Origin: a bacterium | Lineage (GTDB): Bacteria > Babelota > Babeliae > Babelales > RVW-14 | Reading direction: 5' to 3' | DNA length: 21,253 nt | Assembly: GCA_043822925.1 (NCBI GenBank) | Contig: JBDRBF010000084.1 | Span: 1 to 21,253, forward strand | Shown: positions 11,115-20,996 of the stretch, piece by piece | How positions within the stretch are numbered: the first letter of the stretch is position 1 | Layout of the letters: each line of letters begins with the position of its first letter | Notes under the pieces: generated by a model | The model's database searches: none | What the model was told of the DNA's origin: nothing | The model's input: the letters and a program-made list of their open reading frames with translations, nothing else | Position numbers and translations under genes: made by a program

Positions 11115-13313
11115 TTATTTAGCCAGCGGCATTTCTACTGGAAAATTAGCTATTTTTCCCTCCTCTTCTTCCTCATCTTCTTGAGCGTTGGTTGCTTTGC
11201 GTGCGTTTAATTGGCCTTTTATTTTTGCCAAGTTTTTTTGTTCTAAGGCTATTTTTGTTTTAGCATGAATATTTTGTAACTTGGTCGTTGCTTCTTGTTT
11301 TAATTGTTGAAATTGCTTTTGGGTATCATTAAGTTCAAAATTCTTTTTTTGTTGGATATTTTGAAGTTGTTTATGTGCAAGGTCAAGTTCTTGCTTTGTA
11401 TTATCTCTTATAATCAGTAATTCTTTTTCTGCCTGTTGTTGTAGGGCAAGTAGTTCGCTTTGGAGTGTTGCGTTTATAGTTTTTGATTGAGCTGTAATTT
11501 TGTGTGTTTCTTTTTTGATTTCTTCGAGTAATTCTCGTTCTTGTAAGAGCTGATTTCTGTCGGTTATAAGTTTTTGCCTGTCGTCCAAAAGAGTAGATGT
11601 TGTTTTTTGTAGTTCGATCTCTTTTTCAAGTAATGTAACTTTTTCCTGTTTGATTGATTTTTTTTCTTCTTCTAGATATTTCGTAATAGAATCTATTGTT
11701 TGTTGGGCTAAAGATTCTACCATTTGAGCTCTTTGTTCTGATTCTTGAGCCATTTTTTCTGCTTTTTGTGCTTTTATTTTGGTGGCTTTTAGATCTTGCT
11801 GGGTTAGCGTCAGCACTGTTTCTAGGTCGAGAGATGTTTTAGTTGATCCTTCAAGCTGCGTATTTAAATCTTGTTTTATAATATAATCTTTTTGTATTTG
11901 TTTATGGGCAGCTTTATTTTGTGCTTTTATTTGTTCTGCTTGTTCAAGTGCTTGCTTTGTAGCCAGTTCTGCTTCTAATTGTTCTGTTATTTTTTCTTGA
12001 AGGTTTTTTTTCGTTTGAGCGAGGCCTTGCTTTGTTTTATCGAGCTTTTGTTTAATGTGCCCAACTTCTTGTTCCAGTTTTTCAACTTTAAGATGGACTA
12101 CTTGGGTTGGCTTTGTTGCGTGTTGTTCAATTATAACATCAGGCAAAATGTTTGCCCGTTGTCTGAATATAACAGAAAATTCACCCAATTTTTTTCTGAC
12201 AAGAGCTGTTATTTGGTCTGATGGAATATTACGGTTTTGGAATATTGGATCTTGTATGAGGGCGTTTATTTCGTATAAAGCAGCCAGGCGTGTTTTCTTT
12301 TGTAAATCAGGGGTGAGTTTGACGGTTTTTGACATTTTGGCTAGATAGTTGTCAGCTGTTTTTTGAGCGGATACGATTTTTTGTAGTATTGCGTGTTTGT
12401 TTGCTATTTGGGCATACCCGGCATCAGATGTTTGATGGGTTGAGCGTAGGGTGTTATCAAACCATAAATTTTGATCAGAAAAGCGTTTAAGATAGTCTTC
12501 GCGTTCTTGTGGGGTTTCTGCAGAGAGAATAATATTTTTTATGAATGTTATGTTTTGATAAAACTGCTTGGACATTTCGTTTTTCCATTCAGGGGAGACA
12601 TTTTGCATGTCGGGCGACATGCTTTGTATGTTATTTTGTCTATCTTGGTGTATTTTGGTTTCATGTCTAGATAGTCCCATTATTGGTGCTTGTTTATATT
12701 TATAATCTGTATCGATGCTTTCATCTAGTTCTTGTGTTTCTGGTTCATCTGACTGGCCAAATTGTTTGGCTATGGCTTCTCTTTGAGCTTTGTTTTTTAA
12801 TTGTAATGCTCGTTCTTGGGCGTCTTGTATGATATCTAATGTTTTTACAGCTGCTTCTTTTTTGAGTTTAAATGATTCGATTTGAATGTTTTTGCGTAAA
12901 TCAGATGTGATTTGCTCTGTTTGATCGCGCATTTGGGCTATTTTCTCTTCAACGTTTTCATGAATTGCTTGAAGCTTTTTTTCTGTTTTTTTAGTGATTA
13001 AAGATTCTTTGTGGGCGATATCAGCATGTAATTTACTGACAGATTCTTCTGCTTCTTGTGTAAGTTTGGTTATTTCGGCATTTGTTTGAGCTGGTAAGCT
13101 CGGTACAATTATAGATGAGCCAAAGTTTGAGACTATTGTTGCAACTGGGTCTTGTTCTTCGTTAGATAGGTTTTGAGAGATCTCTTGAGAAGATCTGTAT
13201 TCGTGTTTTTTATGTTTTTTATGTTTTGCCTGAGCTTCAAAACTGTATAATACAAATATACACAGAGCAAATAGAGCAGTTATTGTACGCAAAAGATTAC
13301 ATTTTTTATCCAT
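11115..13313 (-). CDS. Secreted long coiled-coil protein of unknown function
   Basis: Signal peptide MDKKCNLLRTITALFALCIFVLYSFEAQA, then KHKKHKKHE. Extensive Q/E/K-rich heptad-like regions and an acidic EDEEEEEG near the C-terminus. Start placed at ATG 13313. Confidence 0.7.
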   Translation of the reverse strand: MDKKCNLLRTITALFALCIFVLYSFEAQAKHKKHKKHEYRSSQEISQNLSNEEQDPVATIVSNFGSSIIVPSLPAQTNAEITKLTQEAEESVSKLHADIAHKESLITKKTEKKLQAIHENVEEKIAQMRDQTEQITSDLRKNIQIESFKLKKEAAVKTLDIIQDAQERALQLKNKAQREAIAKQFGQSDEPETQELDESIDTDYKYKQAPIMGLSRHETKIHQDRQNNIQSMSPDMQNVSPEWKNEMSKQFYQNITFIKNIILSAETPQEREDYLKRFSDQNLWFDNTLRSTHQTSDAGYAQIANKHAILQKIVSAQKTADNYLAKMSKTVKLTPDLQKKTRLAALYEINALIQDPIFQNRNIPSDQITALVRKKLGEFSVIFRQRANILPDVIIEQHATKPTQVVHLKVEKLEQEVGHIKQKLDKTKQGLAQTKKNLQEKITEQLEAELATKQALEQAEQIKAQNKAAHKQIQKDYIIKQDLNTQLEGSTKTSLDLETVLTLTQQDLKATKIKAQKAEKMAQESEQRAQMVESLAQQTIDSITKYLEEEKKSIKQEKVTLLEKEIELQKTTSTLLDDRQKLITDRNQLLQERELLEEIKKETHKITAQSKTINATLQSELLALQQQAEKELLIIRDNTKQELDLAHKQLQNIQQKKNFELNDTQKQFQQLKQEATTKLQNIHAKTKIALEQKNLAKIKGQLNARKATNAQEDEEEEEGKIANFPVEMPLAK

Positions 13314-13501
13314 GGTTCTTCCCATTTTTTGATACAAATTATGGAAGATCAGATTCCCCTTTGTTTTGAGTATGGACTGAATCTTGTACTTTTTTCAAGA
13401 AAATATCAATTTGCAATAATTTAAGATAGTTTGAACTGGGTTATAGTAAATATTCGGTGTTGTTAAAATATGTGAAAATCTTAAAAAATAGGGTGAGTAT
13501 C

Positions 13502-15190
13502 ATGAATAAAAAGTATGTGTATTTTTTGTTTTTTTTATTTGGTATCGTCGCGATTGTTTCGCTCTTTTTTATCTCTCGTAAACCGGTTATTAAAAAAGAA
13601 GTTTTAGTAACTCAAGCTCCTGTTCATCGTATGACCATATTTATTCATGGAACTTTTAGTTCGCAAATGGGTTTATTAAGTTATTCAGAAGTCGTTCGGG
13701 ATAAAGTTAAGGGAACGCTTTATAAAAAAACTCAAAAGAAAATGCGCAAGGACCCTTCTTATTATGCAGGGCAACCGATCCAAGAAAAGGGCTTGGTTTC
13801 TATTATTCCAACGTTTGATCCGGCACAAATTGACAACAAAAAATATGCGGCATATCCATTAATTAAAGCGTATCAAATGGTTACTCAGGAGATCCAAAAA
13901 ACGAGTAGTTATAAAAATAATGAGATAAATTATTATTATACGTTTGGCTGGAGTGGTTTAATTAGCCAGTATCAGCGCCGCAAAGAGGCGGTTAGGCTTT
14001 ATAACACGCTTGTAGAAGAAGTCGAAAATTTTAAAAAGCGTGGAATAAATCCAAAAATTACGATTCTTACCCATAGCCATGGGGGTAATTTGTGTTTGAA
14101 TTTAGGTGCTATTGGATTTTTGTTAAATTCAGAGAAATTGATTTCTGGGGGTGTTTTTTCAGATATTAGTGACGCCAACGAATCTCTTGAAAAAATGGCT
14201 GAAATTTTGAAGGCGCTTTCATCTAAAGAAAATACTTGTTCAATTAAAGGCCAGCGTCATTATGATTATTTACCTGTTTTTAAAGATCTTATTATTGACG
14301 AGCTTATTCTTCTTGGGACGCCGGTGCAGCCTGAGACTCAATATTTTTGGAGTTTCCCAACGTTTAATAAGATATATAATGTGTATTCTGATGCTGATAC
14401 TGTTCAGGAAATGGACTGGGTTTCAACTAAAAAAAGTTCGAGCGATAAGCGCTTTATTGCGACTTCAGACAATAAAAAACTCATGCAAATTAGAGTTATG
14501 TATAACAGAGATCTTTCGCGTATGTTTGTGCGGACTGGTGTTCCTGGGAGTGTTGTTCCACCAATAAATCAAACAATAAATCAAGTAGTAACTCCAAGAG
14601 TGATGCAAAGTCTAACGAATACGCTTACGCCGGACCAGGGGCTTCAACCATTAGAGACTGAGAAGGCAGTGTCCAAAACGGATTCTAAAGTAATAGCTGC
14701 TAAAACAGTAGATTCTAAAAATGGGGTAAGTGGGGGAAAGACTAAAGGTCTGGGAATGCTTTTAGGAACTCTTGTTTCATATGCAAAAATTATTGCTGGT
14801 TCTAAGATTAGTCAGGACCCAGAGCATAAAGAATTATGGTTTGTTGCATGGGAAAATGACAAACTTCAAAATCAAGATAATAATACTGTGCAAACGCTTG
14901 ATATTTTGCCAACCGTTATATTTGTTCCATCTATTCTTGCGAGTCTTGATGCCTATAATTCTCAAGATACGAAAAAATTATATGCCCAAAAATTATATGC
15001 CCAAAAATTATATGCCCAAAAATTATATGATGTTGACGTGAATTTTGTGATAAATTCCGATTGTTTAAATATTCAGCTTATAAAGCATCAAGATAACGTC
15101 GTAAAGCAGAGTGTGCGTTTGCCATGGAGCATTATTGAACATATCAAGCAAGAAGTGCGTAAGTGGCGACCAGAGCAGATAGCCAAGTAA
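13502..15190 (+). CDS. Membrane-anchored or exported alpha/beta-hydrolase-fold (lipase/esterase-like) protein
   Basis: N-terminal TM. IFIHGT (oxyanion), YTFGWSG, THSHGG nucleophile elbow, LILLGTP, YSDADTVQ (Asp candidate), DPEHKEL (His candidate). GGTGA RBS before ATG 13502. Confidence 0.7.
   Translation: MNKKYVYFLFFLFGIVAIVSLFFISRKPVIKKEVLVTQAPVHRMTIFIHGTFSSQMGLLSYSEVVRDKVKGTLYKKTQKKMRKDPSYYAGQPIQEKGLVSIIPTFDPAQIDNKKYAAYPLIKAYQMVTQEIQKTSSYKNNEINYYYTFGWSGLISQYQRRKEAVRLYNTLVEEVENFKKRGINPKITILTHSHGGNLCLNLGAIGFLLNSEKLISGGVFSDISDANESLEKMAEILKALSSKENTCSIKGQRHYDYLPVFKDLIIDELILLGTPVQPETQYFWSFPTFNKIYNVYSDADTVQEMDWVSTKKSSSDKRFIATSDNKKLMQIRVMYNRDLSRMFVRTGVPGSVVPPINQTINQVVTPRVMQSLTNTLTPDQGLQPLETEKAVSKTDSKVIAAKTVDSKNGVSGGKTKGLGMLLGTLVSYAKIIAGSKISQDPEHKELWFVAWENDKLQNQDNNTVQTLDILPTVIFVPSILASLDAYNSQDTKKLYAQKLYAQKLYAQKLYDVDVNFVINSDCLNIQLIKHQDNVVKQSVRLPWSIIEHIKQEVRKWRPEQIAK
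14973..15029 (+). repeat. Perfect in-frame 15-bp tandem repeat (AAAAATTATATGCCC x3.8) encoding KLYAQ repeats
   Basis: Units at 14973, 14988 and 15003, plus a partial unit at 15018-15029, with no mismatches. Confidence 0.95.
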
Positions 15191-15230: not shown

Positions 15231-15354
15231 TAAAATAGTGGCTTTTTTCTCGTGAAATTGTATCATAAAACTCACTTGATACTTGGTGTCATAATCAGTT
15301 AAGTCGCTTTTATATTAATACTTTTTGAATGTCTAGCTAAGGAGAAGGTTGCAC

Positions 15355-17856
15355 ATGTTTTGTTGCAAATTAAACGGATTTAGAATGAAGAGGGTTTCGA
15401 GGTTATTGATTGTTGTTGGGGTTGTTGGTTTTTTTGCGACACATAGTTTTTGTGGTGGCGAAGAAAAAGAGTCTCAAGAGTCTGCTTTATCACAAGATAG
15501 TGGGGGGCACGATTTTCTCGATACAAAAGAGGGGAAAAAGAGTTCGTATACTATTAAAAATATTATAGTCGAAGGTACCAAGTATACAAAAGAGGCGCTT
15601 GTTTTAAATAGTATTCCCTATAAAAAAGGCGATATTTTTGATGTGTTAAAAAGTGCTGAAGCGATTGATAATCTGTATGCTCTTGGTCATTATAATCAAA
15701 TTCGTATTGAAGGCGAAAAGCTGAGTAGTTCTGATATGAATTTATATGTTGTCGTTGAAGAGAAAAAGCTTCTTGCAGATCTTAAGATTTCTGGTAACAG
15801 AAAGATATCGACAAAAAAAATCAAAGAACAGTTAAATCTTGAAAATTTAAAAGCAATTGACGATGAAGTTTTGCGTCAAATTGCTCTTTCTATTAAAAAA
15901 ATATACAAAGAAGAGAACAGGCACTTTGTCGGGGTAAACACAAAGCTTATACCAGATAAAGAAAACCCAGATAAAGTAGTAGCCGAAGTTAAGGTTACTG
16001 AGGGTGCCTCTTCTTCTATTGCGCGTGTCCATTTTGTTGGAAATAAGCATTTACCAGATAGAGTCTTGAGAAATAAGATTTTTACACGGGAAAATTGGTT
16101 ACTCAGTTTTACAGATGGCGCCGGCGTGTATAAAGACAGTGAGCTGGATCTAGATAAGCATCGTATTATTTATCAGTATAAAGATCTTGGTTATCTCATG
16201 GCTAAAATAACAAAAACTGATGTAAAATTTTCAAAAGATAAAAAGAAAGTTGATATTACGTTTCATATTCAAGAAGGAGCTCGTTATATAATTAATAGCG
16301 TTAAAGCTCCAGGCGACGAGATATTTACAGAAGACGAAATTAAGCCTTTACTAGGACTGGAAGAAGGTAAGCCATATTCTCAAGGTAAAATTATAGCGAC
16401 GTTGAGCCGGTTACGTGATTTGTGGGGTATAAAGGGATACATCTATGCAGATGTCTATCCAGAAGTAAAGCCTGATGAAAAAACAAAAAAAGTGGATATT
16501 ACTTTTAATGTTGATCGTGGCAATAAGATGTACGCTAACCGTATTATTATATCTGGAAATACGATTACGCGAGATAAAGTTATTCGTCGTCGTATAGATA
16601 TTGTTGAAGGAGATTTAATTACGACGCCAAAAATGCGAAATTCGCAATCAAGCGTTGAATATTTAAGTTTCTTTAAACGAGATGGCGTTAACTGGAAAAT
16701 GCATCGTATAGATGATACAACAGCAGATCTTGAAATGAATGTTCAAGAAGATAAAACTGGTTCATTAAATTTTCAACTTTCTTACGGTACTGATCGTTAT
16801 AATCCAAGAAGATCAATAAAGGGGATGATCAGCGTAGAAAAACGTAATTTGTTTGGTCTGGGCTGGGATGCTGGCGGATTAATTGAAGCAAGTAGGCATC
16901 GTCTTAAACGTATAGAATCACACTTTTTTGATCCAAGTATTTTGGATAGTGATGTATCTGGAGCATTTAGTTTTTATAAGCGATGGGATGAATACGATCA
17001 ATGGCGTAACGTATCTCCTGCGCCGTTGCAAAAAGTTCTTGGTGTTTCAACTAAGTTTGGGTTTCAGTTGCCTCAAATAGATCCACGCTTACAGCTTATT
17101 TTGGGTGTAGGTATTGAAGATATTCGCAATAATCACCCACATGCTATTGGTGATTTAAGAAATATATTTGAGCCAATAGTTCGCCGTACTTTCCAAACAG
17201 GTTTTTATGACTGGGTCAGTGCAGAGCTTATAAAAGATACGCGTAATCATCAAGTTTATCCAAATCAGGGCTACAAAGTTGAACTCATAACCAGAGCTGC
17301 GTTACCTGTTATTAATCGTGAATTCGGATTCTTTAATATAGAAGCAGCACTCAGTACATATATGGCTTTGATTGGTTCTGATAGTCTCGTGCTGGCTAAC
17401 CGTGTAAAAATTGGCCGTATAGATTCTTTTGGTGGTAAGAATAAACATAATCAAAATTTTGCGGTGCCATATAAAGAGTTGTACCACATGGGCGGCCAGG
17501 GGACTATCCGTGGACATACATGGGGTGGCGTTGGGCCTGCTTGGGTGACTGGTGAGCCTCTTGGTGCTAAAAATATGATCCAGTGGAACACTGAGCTTAT
17601 TTTTCCATTAATTCCAGATTATTCTATGAAGGCACATTTATTCTATGACGCTGGTGCTGGCTGGAGTACCCCTTTATATAGCCAAGATGAGAATAAGTAT
17701 GTTAAGCGAAATAATTTTGATCTTCGTCACTCTGTTGGTTTTGGTATTAACTTGATGAAACCGATTCCAGCTAAGATTGATTGGGGATTTAAGCTTGATC
17801 GTAAACGGGGCGAATCGCCACATGAGTTTCATCTGGATATGAATTACGCCTGGTAA
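15355..17856 (+). CDS. bamA: Outer membrane protein assembly factor BamA (Omp85)
   Basis: Signal peptide; POTRA-type segments (IKNIIVEG, LKISGN, VHFVGN, IIISGNTITRDKVIRR); TGSLNF at the barrel start; RNLFGLG; DTRNHQVYPNQG; GGQGTIRGH (loop 6); FYDAG; C-terminal MNYAW. AAGGAG at 15339-15344. The start may be 15349, 15355 or 15385. Confidence 0.95.
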   Translation: MFCCKLNGFRMKRVSRLLIVVGVVGFFATHSFCGGEEKESQESALSQDSGGHDFLDTKEGKKSSYTIKNIIVEGTKYTKEALVLNSIPYKKGDIFDVLKSAEAIDNLYALGHYNQIRIEGEKLSSSDMNLYVVVEEKKLLADLKISGNRKISTKKIKEQLNLENLKAIDDEVLRQIALSIKKIYKEENRHFVGVNTKLIPDKENPDKVVAEVKVTEGASSSIARVHFVGNKHLPDRVLRNKIFTRENWLLSFTDGAGVYKDSELDLDKHRIIYQYKDLGYLMAKITKTDVKFSKDKKKVDITFHIQEGARYIINSVKAPGDEIFTEDEIKPLLGLEEGKPYSQGKIIATLSRLRDLWGIKGYIYADVYPEVKPDEKTKKVDITFNVDRGNKMYANRIIISGNTITRDKVIRRRIDIVEGDLITTPKMRNSQSSVEYLSFFKRDGVNWKMHRIDDTTADLEMNVQEDKTGSLNFQLSYGTDRYNPRRSIKGMISVEKRNLFGLGWDAGGLIEASRHRLKRIESHFFDPSILDSDVSGAFSFYKRWDEYDQWRNVSPAPLQKVLGVSTKFGFQLPQIDPRLQLILGVGIEDIRNNHPHAIGDLRNIFEPIVRRTFQTGFYDWVSAELIKDTRNHQVYPNQGYKVELITRAALPVINREFGFFNIEAALSTYMALIGSDSLVLANRVKIGRIDSFGGKNKHNQNFAVPYKELYHMGGQGTIRGHTWGGVGPAWVTGEPLGAKNMIQWNTELIFPLIPDYSMKAHLFYDAGAGWSTPLYSQDENKYVKRNNFDLRHSVGFGINLMKPIPAKIDWGFKLDRKRGESPHEFHLDMNYAW

Positions 17857-17882: not shown

Positions 17883-17924
17883 AACAAAAAGAGCGTCGGT
17901 TTTTAAACCGACGCTCTTTTTGTT
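17883..17924 (+). terminator. Intrinsic terminator of bamA
   Basis: Perfect inverted repeat AACAAAAAGAGCGTCGGTTT-TT-AAACCGACGCTCTTTTTGTT, with a U-tract on both strands. Confidence 0.9.
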
Positions 17925-18141
17925 AAAAACGAATTTAATGTGTAACATTTTGTGGCTTATTTCTAGGGGGACCCGTAAAAAAACTATAATAAATAGGTTT
18001 TGTTAGCCAAATAAGCTGTTTGCGCTTGTTTGAATGTGTTATTTGTGTTAATATTATTGCTATCTGTATTTTTATGTATTGTTTTTTATTGTTCTAAAAA
18101 ATGGTGTTCTGTAATTTTTCTTAAATGTGAGAGGTTATATC

Positions 18142-19881
18142 ATGAAAAAGTTTTTATTTATTTCAGTGCTTAGTCTTGTTTTATATACAAGCACAGGGCT
18201 TGATGTTTCTGCCATGCAAAATAATAGTGATGGTAATGCTATGCACGGCGATAAGCCGAGTAAGCATGAAAAGAAAGGCAAAAAGCATAAGAGTGAAGAG
18301 AAAAAAGAGCATTCAGAAAAGAAAAGACGAAAAAAATCTAAAAAGTGTGAAATTTGTCACTTGGTGCGAGATGGTGAGTTGGTAGAAACTGTTTTGCAAT
18401 GTTTCAAGCAAAATCCAGAAACAGAGAAAAATAAAGAACATTTTGTTCATAGCACTTGTCTGCAGTCATATACCCTGGGAAAAAAAGAATTTATAGCTCA
18501 GCATACAACGCCGGTTGTGGGGTGGCATTATGCTCCGTGTCCAGCGCATGTTGGTGGTGTCGAAAAGCTATGCGATGGCCAGCTACATATGGAAGAGGAC
18601 AGTGAGCAAATCGTACCGGTTTGTTCATTTTGTCGACTATCTGAAGAAGATAGCGTTCGCTTAAAGTCAATGCCGAATGAAAAATTTGAAGACCCGTGCT
18701 CGTGTTGTGGATGCAAGAGTGCCGTTCATTTTTCTTGTCTTGTAGTATGGATTGATCAATTGATAAAAAGAGGGGCAGAGGCTTGTTGTTCGTCAGTGCA
18801 GTGTCGTACAATAACTGATTGGGCACAGCGAATGAAATTGGCACAACAGGTAATTGGAAGAATTGAAAAAGTTTTGGGTGGACAGGGGCCGGAAAAAGAA
18901 ATGATGAAAGCCTATTTGCAAGATATCATTTTTAATAAAACCAAAGAAATGTCTGGTGCCGCGGGATTTTTATTGTATGCATATTTTGTAAGTGGCGGGC
19001 GGCTCAATACCCAGCTTACTGCTTTTTTTGAAGCTTTAAGGTTGGATGATTTGGATAAGTTTTTATTTGCGATGAATGGGTTGTTCGAATACGTTGGTAA
19101 ACGCATTAATAACGGCGATTTGCGGCCAATTTTGTTTTTGCAAAAAGAACAGGTAACGATTTATGACTTTTTTCTTGATTTTTACTCCCGCGATCAAGTT
19201 CGGATCTGCGAGGCGCTTCTATTTGCTCTTGAGGGAGAAAAACAGGAGATAATTGATTTTTTAATGGGCAATGAGTCTATTAAAAATGCGTTAGTGAATT
19301 ATTGTGAGCAGGATGGTGAGCAGGCATCTAGTATTTTGGGCGCTGCGCTTTGTGTCGGCAATACAGTATTTATAGATTTTGTGATTAATAATGAGACAAT
19401 AAAAATAGCAATTACTACTTATTTGGAGAGCAATGGCCAGATGGCATCGGCAATTTTAAGAGATGCTTTTTGTGCAAAAAAATTAGAGCTAGTTGATTTT
19501 TTGATGAGCAATAAGGCTATAGAAAGCGCGATGGCGAATTATTTGGAGGATGATGGCGATATGGCATCTGATATCTTGAGGTTTGCGCTTTATAAGAATA
19601 AAACAGAACTTGTTAGCCTTTTGATGAGCGAAAAGACAAAGTTAGAAATGCTTAATTATTGTAAACAAGATGCAAAGAGGGCGTTTGATCTTTTGTTCTA
19701 TGCGATTGGGGCTGAATGTACAAATGTTGTCGAATTATTAATAAAGAGTTCTATTTTTTTAAATCGAGACGATCTTGAAAAGATTTACAAAACTGCTGAT
19801 AAAATGCGAGATGCTGAAAAGAAAACTCAGATAAAAGCATTGATACAAGAGCGCATAAAACAGATCGATGGTAATTTGTGA
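18142..19881 (+). CDS. Secreted tandem RING-finger (RING-H2-like + RING-CH/RINGv-like) protein with an NLS-like segment and 40-aa helical repeats; candidate E3 ligase effector
   Basis: GAGG RBS. Signal peptide ending VSA-M; KKRRKKSKK; CEIC...C...HFVHSTCL...CP...C; CSFC...PCSCCGCKSAVHFSCLVVW...CCSSVQC; five C-terminal repeats. Confidence 0.75.
   Translation: MKKFLFISVLSLVLYTSTGLDVSAMQNNSDGNAMHGDKPSKHEKKGKKHKSEEKKEHSEKKRRKKSKKCEICHLVRDGELVETVLQCFKQNPETEKNKEHFVHSTCLQSYTLGKKEFIAQHTTPVVGWHYAPCPAHVGGVEKLCDGQLHMEEDSEQIVPVCSFCRLSEEDSVRLKSMPNEKFEDPCSCCGCKSAVHFSCLVVWIDQLIKRGAEACCSSVQCRTITDWAQRMKLAQQVIGRIEKVLGGQGPEKEMMKAYLQDIIFNKTKEMSGAAGFLLYAYFVSGGRLNTQLTAFFEALRLDDLDKFLFAMNGLFEYVGKRINNGDLRPILFLQKEQVTIYDFFLDFYSRDQVRICEALLFALEGEKQEIIDFLMGNESIKNALVNYCEQDGEQASSILGAALCVGNTVFIDFVINNETIKIAITTYLESNGQMASAILRDAFCAKKLELVDFLMSNKAIESAMANYLEDDGDMASDILRFALYKNKTELVSLLMSEKTKLEMLNYCKQDAKRAFDLLFYAIGAECTNVVELLIKSSIFLNRDDLEKIYKTADKMRDAEKKTQIKALIQERIKQIDGNL
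19192..19743 (+). repeat. Degenerate 120-bp (40-aa) intragenic tandem repeats, ankyrin-like
   Basis: Units start at 19192, 19312, 19432, 19552 and 19669, e.g. DGEQASSILGAAL..., NGQMASAILRDAF..., DGDMASDILRFAL... Confidence 0.85.
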
Positions 19882-19945: not shown

Positions 19946-19983
19946 AAAAAAAAAGGCCGGGGAATTCCTGGCCCTTTTTTTTT
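19946..19983 (+). terminator. Intrinsic terminator after the RING protein gene
   Basis: A9-GGCCGGG-GAATT-CCTGGCC-C-T9 (one G-U pair in the stem). Confidence 0.85.
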
Positions 19984-20120: not shown

Positions 20121-20996
20121 GTGAAAAGTATTTTTAAGAACGTGTTATTTGTCGTTTTGTGTTCTTTTGTTTTATTAGGATCCGGTGCTTTGCTTGCTAT
20201 AAAAAGAGATATTACTCCTGAGGCTTTAGCCCTCTCCTTCTTTTCAACTAAGAAACAGGCCACAGCGATGGTTCAGGAAGCTTTTACTAAAGAAGATTAT
20301 GATGTAATTGATCATTTAATGAGTAGCTTTTTGTTTAGAGATTGTCTTATTGCCGCTGTAAATGTTTTGGGTGATGATGGCGAAGTGGCTTTTAATGCTC
20401 TTAAGTGGGCGGTTGAAAGAGGTGATCAGGTAGCTCAGGATTTGCTTTTGGAGGATGAAGATGCTCGATTGGCGATAGAAAGTTTTTGTAATTCGAACTG
20501 TGTATCAGAGGATGTTGAGGATATTGATGAAATTTATAATGCTGGGCGTGCATATGAACTATTGTGTTTAGCAAGAGAGAAGAAAAATAAAAAGATTGAG
20601 TCCTTAGTGTTTGAATTTTGTTGTAGTTTGAGCGGTGGATCTGATAAGGCAGTATACGTTATTGTGAGTGAGTCAATTGAGAAAAATAATATCGATATGT
20701 TTAAGTTTTTAAAGTCCTATAGCTGTGTTCGAGAAATGTTACAATTTTATTTTTGTGGTAATCAAGATTGTGCGGTTGAGATTTGTCTCAGGGCTATCGA
20801 ACAAGCTAATTTCGGAGCACTCGAGTATATTTTCTCTCTTAAAGATGTTGTTTATTTAGATAAAGATTTTAGGGCGATGATTGCTAAGGCTAAAGATTTA
20901 CAGGTTGTCGCTGAAGAAAAAGTTTTGAAAATTATTAAACGTATTCGTCTTCAAGCGTGTAGACAAATGTTAATGCAAGCTCGGACAGGAAAGTAG
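20121..20996 (+). CDS. Secreted ankyrin-like helical-repeat protein, probable paralog of the C-terminal half of the upstream gene
   Basis: GGAG at 20109-20112 before the GTG start; signal peptide. Repeats DDGEVAFNALKWAVERGDQVAQDLLL and NQDCAVEICLRAIEQANFGALEYIF resemble the 40-aa units upstream. Confidence 0.65.
   Translation: MKSIFKNVLFVVLCSFVLLGSGALLAIKRDITPEALALSFFSTKKQATAMVQEAFTKEDYDVIDHLMSSFLFRDCLIAAVNVLGDDGEVAFNALKWAVERGDQVAQDLLLEDEDARLAIESFCNSNCVSEDVEDIDEIYNAGRAYELLCLAREKKNKKIESLVFEFCCSLSGGSDKAVYVIVSESIEKNNIDMFKFLKSYSCVREMLQFYFCGNQDCAVEICLRAIEQANFGALEYIFSLKDVVYLDKDFRAMIAKAKDLQVVAEEKVLKIIKRIRLQACRQMLMQARTGK

Follow-up and report, generated by a model that had tools for sequence, protein, structure and literature searches.

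A divergent, putatively secreted protein with two RING-like modules and ankyrin-like repeats from a probable member of the Dependentiae

Fingers of the RING-CH (RINGv) type, as found in the membrane ubiquitin ligases (E3s) K3/MIR of Kaposi's sarcoma-associated herpesvirus (KSHV), MARCH, and Doa10, are marked by a C4HC3 order of zinc ligands, a C-x-C pair, a His seven residues on, and the motif H-x2-C-[LI]-x2-W. Here, a predicted bacterial gene product with a probable finger of this kind (P0001; 579 amino acids) is described, encoded at positions 18142 to 19881 on the forward strand of contig JBDRBF010000084.1, of which the whole stretch of 21,253 nucleotides was analysed (the window). Its two Cys/His-rich modules, D1 and D2, lie in tandem between a Sec-type signal peptide and a set of ankyrin-like repeats. 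D2 shares with K3/MIR, MARCH, and Doa10 the C4HC3 order, the spacing from C-x-C to His, the motif V-H-x2-C-L-x2-W, and a hydrophobic residue inside the first Cys pair; K3, Doa10, and c-MIR account for three of its four sequence matches in the PDB. In contrast to these membrane E3s, P0001 has, by hydropathy scan, no transmembrane helices C-terminal to the RING-CH-like module, D2 closes with a C-x4/5-C pair and has additional Cys at 189 and 191, and the protein is encoded in a bacterial genome with a Sec signal peptide and a second finger upstream.

Protists are the hosts of Dependentiae, a widespread group of parasites with hardly any cultured members, whose means of taking over the host are largely obscure. 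A RING finger protein of Babela massiliensis is termed a potential E3 in the passage that treats it (PMC4378268), CAHE_p0026 of Cardinium is listed as an annotated RING ubiquitin ligase with ankyrin repeats (PMC5698495, in the part concerned), and the sections on Babela and Chromulinavorax take the signal-peptide-bearing ankyrin proteins of these bacteria to be secreted into the host (PMC4378268, PMC6561590). As far as those passages go, the Babela protein and CAHE_p0026, like the RING-encoding open reading frames (ORFs) of relatives described below, resemble P0001 in lineage or lifestyle and in joining RING fingers to ankyrin or ankyrin-like repeats; the relatives' ORFs also share its signal-peptide-like N-terminus. 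They differ in that 56 of 59 of the relatives' fingers match the Pfam family zf-RING_2, whereas P0001 is missed by the profile built from them, lacks a detectable homologue, and has repeats of 40 rather than 33 amino acids.

RING-class effectors are also on record from Legionella, where, in the section of PMC7542358 on such proteins, Lpg2370 and MavM are named as RING-type and the first U-box of LubX is described as binding the ubiquitin-conjugating enzyme (E2) while the second serves substrate binding. By analogy, LubX, a bacterial effector with two RING-class modules in tandem, may serve as a precedent for D1 and D2 sharing out their tasks, although its U-boxes are zinc-free, it is a type IV secretion substrate, and it has no ankyrin-like repeats. 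Literature searches combining Dependentiae, RING, and ubiquitin returned unrelated papers only, and the main text of the Dependentiae genome papers, as far as covered, mentions a RING domain only for Babela (supplementary tables may list more); no bacterial RING-CH effector was among the literature matches listed, which were host MARCH papers instead.

At about an even chance, P0001 is interpreted here as an effector that resembles RING-type ubiquitin ligases, is exported by Sec, and is directed at the host; its source would be an intracellular bacterium with a small genome, probably one of the Dependentiae (TM6). It is a highly divergent example of an already known kind of protein.

Two cysteine- and histidine-rich modules in P0001

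The architecture of the protein comprises the following features, with the evidence used for each given in parentheses.

18142-19881, + strand: gene of P0001, 579 amino acids, stop codon included (open frame, translation)
18142-18213, + strand: Sec-type signal peptide, residues 1-24, consisting of MKK, a 12-residue h-region FLFISVLSLVLY, and VSA/M (sequence, hydropathy)
18253-18345, + strand: polybasic tract K38-K68 (KPSKHEKKGKKHKSEEKKEHSEKKRRKKSKK), 17 Lys/Arg of 31 residues, resembling a nuclear localization signal (NLS) (sequence)
18346-18588, + strand: D1, RING-H2-like zinc module (pattern, alignment to relatives' RINGs, AlphaFold2 model with an alignment)
18622-18804, + strand: D2, RING-CH (RINGv)-like zinc module (Pfam RINGv, PDB sequence matches, variant contig)
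18805-19182, + strand: helical linker, residues 222-347, of no recognised family (Pfam scans)
19183-19779, + strand: five ankyrin-like helical repeats of 39-40 amino acids, residues 348-546 (repeat alignment, Pfam, Atlas)

A preliminary description of the sequence had placed the basic tract at 18253-18345, D1 at 18346-18573, and D2 at 18622-18804, and with the start Met at 18142 all of these coordinates and their motifs were recovered exactly. It had likewise described a signal peptide and 40-residue repeats, both of which are real (MKK, 12 hydrophobic residues, and VSA; five repeats at residues 348-546).

Of the 153 amino acids from residue 69 to 221, 16 are Cys and 8 are His, in a genome with an overall Cys frequency of 1.5%. 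Among 1247 open frames of at least 150 amino acids, a RING-CH-type regular expression matched P0001 alone, and a loose RING-H2 expression matched only P0001 and one other frame of the same genome, a true RING-H2 protein encoded on contig C14, so that the Cys/His pattern goes beyond chance.

In D2, the motif reads C161-x2-C164, P-C186-S-C188-C-G-C191, V-H196-F-S-C199-L-V-V-W203, C215/C216, and C221, with C161, C164, C186, C188, H196, C199, C215 or C216, and C221 as candidate ligands, accompanied by W203 and R222. The C4HC3 order and the RING-CH succession of C-x-C, seven residues, and H-x2-C-L-x2-W are present. When D2 alone (residues 154-245) was compared with Pfam, RINGv (PF12906) matched at 23.7 bits (E 5.4e-5; gathering cut-off 21.6), and in a six-frame scan of the genome it matched at D2 with 22.1 bits, again above the cut-off; the only other family on D2 was PHD_4 (E 0.22, 11.9 bits vs. 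a cut-off of 30.6). Four PDB sequences matched D2 at E<=10, namely KSHV K3 (0.058), Doa10 (0.19), RNF24 (0.19), and c-MIR/MARCH8 (6.5). Every one of them is a RING and three belong to the RING-CH type; no PHD finger is among them, and none of the matches is significant. The Trp two residues before C215/C216 that would be expected of a PHD finger is absent. Aligned with hhalign to A1, an alignment of 59 RING fingers of relatives that served as the comparison set for both modules, D2 reached a probability of 24% (E 8e-4). A RING-CH/RINGv-type finger is the best reading of D2, borderline but consistent, and the RING-CH label of the preliminary description holds. The family search proposed there, RINGv or zf-RING_2 against PHD, was informative for D2, which passes RINGv and fails PHD_4, and gave no family for D1.

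Natural variation bears on the same assignment. A diverged contig of low depth (depth 2) from the groundwater run X4 shows 29 differences over 18592-18800, 20 of which are listed, the first at 18628 and the last at 18770; the listed changes fall in 15 codons, 5 of them synonymous and 10 non-synonymous. C161, C164, and C188 are untouched by the listed changes, C199, L200, and W203 are unchanged, and C186 and H196 carry synonymous changes only, while the non-ligand C191 is replaced by Tyr and F163 by Ile, a common E2-contact residue between the first two Cys of RINGs. C215/C216 lie inside the contig but past the last listed change, and C221 lies outside it. Because the variant keeps the D2 ligands within its listed part and loses C191, a RING-CH ligand assignment is favoured over PHD spacing. 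The unaligned upstream end of the contig reads LCDGQLHKE, keeping C144 and H149 of D1.

The D1 motif (18346-18573) consists of C69-x2-C72, C87, H100-x2-H103-x2-C106, C133-P, and C144. Candidate ligands are C69, C72, C87, H100, H103, C106, and C133 together with H136 or C144, leaving H149 spare, and the spacing C69-x2-C72-x14-C87-x12-H100-x2-H103-x2-C106-x26-C133-x2-H136 (or C144) fits a C3H2C3 order. Canonical RING-H2 fingers have one to three residues between ligands 3 and 4; stretched ligand gaps also occur in some of the relatives' RINGs, e.g., x7 at locus L048. The alignment of D1 to A1 with hhalign, which places CxxC / C / H-x2-C-L in register, gave a probability of 40% (E 3e-4). An AlphaFold2 model of D1 based on a RING alignment (59 RINGs, A2) reached a mean predicted local distance difference test (pLDDT) score of 66.5, with residues 64-113 folded as a beta-hairpin and helix (pLDDT 73-83) and the remainder at about 52. 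Compared with 48,161 chains by VIA-align, this model returned RING-type E3 domains in nearly all of the 50 listed rows (Z 4.8-3.0), including parkin RING1, listerin, HOIL-1L, HHARI, AO7, FANCL, APC11, RNF4, TRAF, and others, where a Z below 8 may, according to the tool's own warning, reflect just a common arrangement. The top rows are RING1 of parkin, HHARI, and HOIL-1L (Z 4.8-4.6; root-mean-square deviation 2.4-2.9 over 54-69 residues, values biased by the alignment), which are large RINGs with long loops, as is D1. Because the underlying alignment consisted of RINGs, such matches speak for fold compatibility and are no independent proof. D1 is a plausible candidate for a stretched RING-H2-like finger.

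RING1 of parkin, HHARI, and HOIL-1L belongs to RING-between-RING (RBR) ligases. In contrast to these, P0001 lacks an IBR match and an Rcat module in the Pfam scans, whereas another protein of the same genome has an IBR (see below), and an RBR reading of D1 plus D2 was rejected for want of the IBR match.

Both modules can each be brought into register with the 59 relatives' RINGs at CxxC, C, HxxC-L, and the last pair. Compared with each other by BLASTP, D1 and D2 did not align at E<=100, so an internal duplication is not detectable. A joint alignment of D1 plus D2 with the relatives' RINGs was dropped, as MAFFT split the RINGs between the CxxC of D1 and the rest of D2. For residues 64-235, the named feature neighbours listed by the ESM Atlas belong without exception to RING families (0.90-0.81), which serve as leads only. 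Six of the ten listed structural neighbours are RINGv clusters (RINGv in 92-100% of members) and the remaining ones zf-RING_2, SWIM/zf-RING_2, or ZFPL1 B-box/U-box clusters; the Atlas model has a mean pLDDT of 0.57, and its template-modelling (TM) scores to these neighbours (0.29-0.40) are all under the bar. A complex prediction of D1, D2, and four zinc ions scored 0.00 with the fold of the partners uncertain, and carries no weight either way.

The nearest Atlas feature clusters of residues 64-235 are small RING proteins of Nucleocytoviricota, or giant viruses. Giant viruses share protist hosts with Dependentiae, and these neighbours provide a lead on the origin of the fingers, not evidence of transfer.

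RING proteins of the order and of the same genome

RINGv matches at E<=0.01 were found in 49 of the 201 genomes of the order, 25 of them above the cut-off, and in none of 14 control genomes. Loci taken from 39 of the 48 other matching genomes yielded 64 RING domain rows and 59 ORF rows, two of the latter being truncated copies of ORFs that are whole in an overlapping locus. The aligned fingers match zf-RING_2 in 56 of 59 cases, and 43 match RINGv as well (E<=0.001); the relatives' fingers are ordinary RINGs on account of these matches. By a crude hydropathy criterion, used in place of a predictor, a signal-peptide-like N-terminus was called in 44 of the 55 N-terminally complete RING ORFs (43 of 54 without one double-counted ORF). 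Several ORFs combine a signal peptide, a RING, and ankyrin repeats, as in three adjacent genes at L059:1705-5402; the repeats of a RING ORF at L022 look leucine-rich by eye; and tandem RINGs occur at L026:1-1956 and L046:1-2238.

At least four other RING proteins are encoded in the genome that harbours P0001. The RING-H2 protein on C14 matches zf-RING_2 at 48.4 bits. An 807-residue protein (C36:1111-3531, - strand) has an Ank_2 region (147 bits) followed by two profile-detected RINGs and, by eye, a third Cys-rich motif. A second ankyrin-RING protein is apparently broken across two contigs, C36 at its end and C61 at its start, with overlapping translated ends. A fourth protein of 528 amino acids (C66:894-2477, + strand; locus L064:454-2037) has an N-terminal hydrophobic segment and, ahead of an IBR (IBR_1 42.1 bits), a RING1-like finger with a sub-threshold zf-RING_2 match (22.3 bits); it is a candidate RBR-type ligase.

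A soluble RING-CH finger paired with a second RING had initially been thought to look unusual. That impression does not survive the comparison: signal peptides with RINGs, RINGs with ankyrin repeats, and tandem RINGs recur in the relatives and in the genome itself, and a RING finger protein had already been reported from Babela massiliensis (PMC4378268, in the passage cited above). Judged by sequence, P0001 is one more RING-type protein, the most divergent, of a RING-rich lineage.

Searches for homologues illustrate this divergence. P0001 itself was the only match in a word-indexed library of 5.8 billion proteins (lengths of 318-1014 amino acids) and, for residues 60-245, in a phmmer search of 1.84 billion representative proteins; among its own genome and 40 relatives, the own genome alone matched; and 269 pattern matches in metagenome contigs of the Joint Genome Institute (JGI) included 0 relatives of P0001. 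Contigs of four additional metagenome runs, from four studies of groundwater or biofilm, carry the gene without a single difference, in pieces none of which runs across the whole gene.

Export signals, repeats, and genomic setting

The N-terminal hydrophobic segment of P0001 has a 12-residue Kyte-Doolittle mean of 2.57, and a hydropathy scan of the protein revealed, in addition to this signal segment, one threshold-level amphipathic repeat helix (around residue 397) and nothing more. The Lys/Arg density of the basic tract ranks fourth among 1086 ORFs of at least 150 amino acids in the genome, and the tract contains the NLS-like patterns KKRRKK (monopartite) and K47K48-x11-KKRRK (bipartite), in conformity with the consensus of classical mono- and bipartite NLSs. 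Extreme polybasic tracts, with up to 20 Lys/Arg in 31 residues, are also present in other signal-peptide-like ORFs of the genome, e.g., on C24 (- strand, 8448), C8 (+ strand, 69800), C2 (+ strand, 95418), and C31 (- strand, 908). Since other such ORFs also carry polybasic tracts, the tract of P0001 may represent a recurrent targeting or binding element of the exported proteins of this organism. At positions 18295-18336 of the window, X3 and X5 contigs of other, far more abundant organisms (depth 73) match with small gaps; this looks like low-complexity cross-matching of AAG/AAA-rich sequence to the lysine-rich tract, and not like variants of the P0001 gene.

With respect to export machinery, three secretins and three GspE/PilB-type ATPases are encoded in the genome. 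In this 92%-complete assembly, VirB4 was not found, nor was either DsbA or DsbB; this picture agrees with Cys-rich proteins being exported by Sec and kept in the reduced state.

The repeats of P0001, delimited by [NT]Y[CL][EK] anchors, have a period of 39-40 amino acids versus 33 in ankyrin repeats. Ank_2 (PF12796) matches the C-terminal repeats at 26.2 bits (E 1.2e-5), just under its cut-off of 27.3, and DUF3447 matches them at E 0.0011. Atlas feature neighbours of the C-terminal part are ankyrin clusters (0.94-0.92), and its structural neighbours are PPR, HEAT, and TPR helical-repeat clusters, all under the bar, in rows that start inside the linker (query residues from 240-280 on). Tandem Repeats Finder detected no repeats in the DNA of the gene, and a BLAST self-comparison of the C-terminus gave no internal matches. 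An ORF on C6, retrieved by jackhmmer with the C-terminus, was disregarded as profile drift; it is unrelated and, by eye, of ATPase/nuclease type.

Four further features surround the P0001 gene.

17890-17925, + strand: terminator-like hairpin 3' of bamA, with a 10-bp GC-rich stem (AGAGCGTCGG/CCGACGCTCT), an 8-nt loop, and a T-rich tail (read directly)
18129-18134, + strand: Shine-Dalgarno-like GAGAGG, 7-8 nt ahead of ATG 18142 (sequence)
19955-19982, + strand: intrinsic-terminator-like hairpin GGCCGGGGAATTCCTGGCC (19955-19973) followed by T9 (terminator scan)
20121-20996, + strand: repeat-module paralogue of 291 amino acids with an N-terminal hydrophobic segment and no zinc modules (BLASTP, phmmer)

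The paralogue matches P0001 at E 3e-6 and 5e-5 by BLASTP and at E 1.1e-4 by phmmer (within the genome). The open frame of P0001, which ends at 19881 on the + strand, could begin at GTG 18127 or ATG 18142, and the ATG is favoured because of the Shine-Dalgarno-like sequence at 18129-18134. Since a hairpin follows bamA upstream and a terminator-like hairpin follows the gene downstream, P0001 is predicted to be encoded by its own, free-standing transcription unit; the hairpin after bamA was not among the results of a consensus terminator scan.

The upstream gene, bamA (15349-17856), encodes five POTRA stretches and an Omp85 domain. In four relatives with otherwise syntenic bamA loci, the P0001 gene and the next gene (20121-20996) are missing, and other, likewise secreted-looking ORFs occupy the gap. 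As P0001 and its neighbour are absent and different secreted-looking ORFs are present in the gaps of these four relatives, the site appears to be a variable, effector-like spot and not one of bamA-linked function. A functional tie between P0001 and bamA was rejected, since the transcription signals are separate and the two genes do not lie together in the four relatives.

On the other side of bamA are two large ORFs (11115-13337, - strand, 740 amino acids; 13457-15190, + strand, 577 amino acids), which match no Pfam family at E<=1 except for a weak Abhydrolase_1 hint (0.072) and are kept in position and sequence (29-42% identity) beside bamA at the relatives' loci L002-L005. A conserved - strand gene at the end of the window, by eye perhaps a glycosyltransferase, borders the variable gap that is filled by P0001 and its paralogue.

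The genome holding P0001 spans 1.52 Mb in 86 contigs (37% GC, 92% complete, 3.2% contaminated), and genomes of its relatives range from 0.7 to 1.8 Mb. The nearest relatives of its BamA are proteins from metagenome-assembled genomes, one labelled Candidatus Dependentiae (54% identity) and the rest 'bacterium' or 'uncultured Pseudomonadota'. From these labels and the style of the genome, rather than from phylogeny, the source is probably a Dependentiae-like intracellular bacterium.

Alternative explanations, a possible mechanism, and implications

If P0001 is a RING-type effector, the following course of events may be envisaged. The cleavable signal peptide, which is seen in the sequence, would carry the unfolded protein across the inner membrane. 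A periplasm without DsbA and DsbB could keep the 16 Cys of the zinc modules (residues 69-221) reduced, and a secretin/GspE-type machine or vesicles may then hand the protein to the host cell. In the host cytosol, both modules would bind zinc as cross-brace RING fingers. D2, with a hydrophobic residue inside its first Cys pair (F163, Ile in the variant), the helix Trp (W203), and a basic residue following its final Cys (R222), would be the likelier docking site for the E2-ubiquitin conjugate. D1 has Ile71 and Pro134 but neither a Trp nor a basic residue behind its final ligand; its part may be to assist D2 or, comparable to the second U-box of LubX, to hold the substrate. The roles of I71, P134, F163, W203, and R222 in E2 or ubiquitin contact are motif-level indications. 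The five 40-residue ankyrin-like repeats would select the host substrate and, as the least certain step, the polybasic tract might direct P0001 to the nucleus or to acidic membranes.

A number of observations weigh against a RING-type effector, and the assignment of P0001 as a ligase effector is a prediction of borderline strength. Searched over its own genome at E<=1, the A1 profile found six other RING sites and missed P0001, and AlphaFold2 without an alignment produced an unusable model of residues 64-245 (pLDDT 33). The RINGv pass of D2 is borderline, since with the full-length sequence as query the score is no higher than 15.1 bits (E 0.027, sub-threshold); the match covers positions 1-44 of the 47 of the hidden Markov model, leaving the terminal C-x2-C unmatched, and where RING-CH fingers have that pair, D2 has C215/C216-x4/5-C221. 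Moreover, 5 of 200 shuffles of D2 reached or exceeded its hhalign score. For D1 (residues 60-153), neither Pfam, including zf-RING_2, nor PDB sequences gave any match at E<=10, a Foldseek search of the PDB with the D1 model gave no match at E<=0.001, the gap of 12 residues between ligands 3 and 4 and a last ligand that is a His or a distant Cys are atypical, and the RING likeness of the model is both circular, the alignment having been made of RINGs, and weak (Z<5). None of 200 shuffles of D1 attained its hhalign score, but the best came close, at 19.53 vs. 19.57. The RING-H2-like label given to D1 in the preliminary description is upheld weakly, by the alignment to the relatives' RINGs and by these shuffles; Pfam gives no match, and the model is of moderate quality (pLDDT 66.5). 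Finally, conservation of the ligands of P0001 is documented by one depth-2 contig and by no homologues.

Some of the same irregularities would suit non-catalytic binding fingers, PHD-like or of another treble-clef type, in a scaffold bound for the nucleus, or 'nucleomodulin', with chromatin, ubiquitin, or some other host protein as its ligand. An explanation of this kind is unlikely, and it accounts for the strong NLS-like tract immediately before the fingers, for the last zinc pair of D2 that is atypical of RINGs, and for the absence from D1 of the helix Trp and the post-ligand basic residue; in addition, a search of PDB sequences with the whole protein gave eight weak matches of which four are KAT6A/B double PHD fingers (E 0.86-4.6), PHD_4 is seen on D2 at E 0.22, and C189-x-C191-x4-H196-x2-C199 can be read with PHD spacing. 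However, D2 alone matches RINGs and no PHD finger in the PDB, RINGv is ahead of PHD_4 by about 12 bits, H-x2-C-L-x2-W is a RING-CH feature while the PHD-typical Trp before ligand 7 is lacking, the Atlas neighbours are RING families, and C191, which the PHD spacing requires, is Tyr in the natural variant. The Sec signal peptide, together with the position of the gene directly after bamA, would also fit a protein that works for the bacterium itself, in its envelope or outside the cell, with a disulfide-bonded or metal-binding Cys-rich part and a convergent likeness to RINGs. Zinc fingers are unexpected in exported proteins, and the RING evidence is borderline; nevertheless, searches of the 92%-complete genome for DsbA and DsbB found neither, signal-peptide-like N-termini also precede the canonical RING-H2 fingers of relatives (44 of 55), the ankyrin-like repeats suggest a eukaryotic target, and the location beside bamA looks incidental given the gene's own terminators and its absence from the syntenic loci of four relatives, all of which makes an envelope role decidedly improbable.

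A fast-evolving orphan ORF or a decaying gene with no present function is harder still to credit. Such an origin would agree with the lack of homologues in two very large protein libraries, 40 relatives, and the JGI metagenome contigs, and with a location in a variable gap between conserved genes, but the 579-codon frame is intact at 37% GC and has a Shine-Dalgarno site and terminators, contigs from four additional runs, belonging to four studies, carry the identical sequence, and the diverged variant retains the candidate ligands within its listed part, two of them with synonymous changes. Within the preferred interpretation of P0001 as a RING-type effector, a more specific proposal, which is improbable, is that D1 and D2 form a single-chain RING-H2/RING-CH pair, in which an inactive D1 packs on and activates the soluble D2 as in heterodimeric RING E3s, with delivery by Sec and a secretin in place of an injection system and nuclear import in the protist through the bipartite NLS. 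If so, neither a soluble RING-CH ligase nor a nuclear E3 effector would have been described for Dependentiae before P0001, and RING ligases with Sec signals would constitute a large, so far uncatalogued effector class of the order.

As a RING-type effector, P0001 would add a very divergent candidate ligase to the host-manipulation repertoire of Dependentiae. The survey suggests that signal-peptide-bearing RINGs are common in the order, occurring alone, with ankyrin or leucine-rich repeats, in tandem, or beside an IBR-containing protein. If these RING proteins are active, Dependentiae would deliver classical zinc RING ligases via the Sec pathway, and how Cys-rich zinc fingers stay reduced and reach the host would become a testable question.

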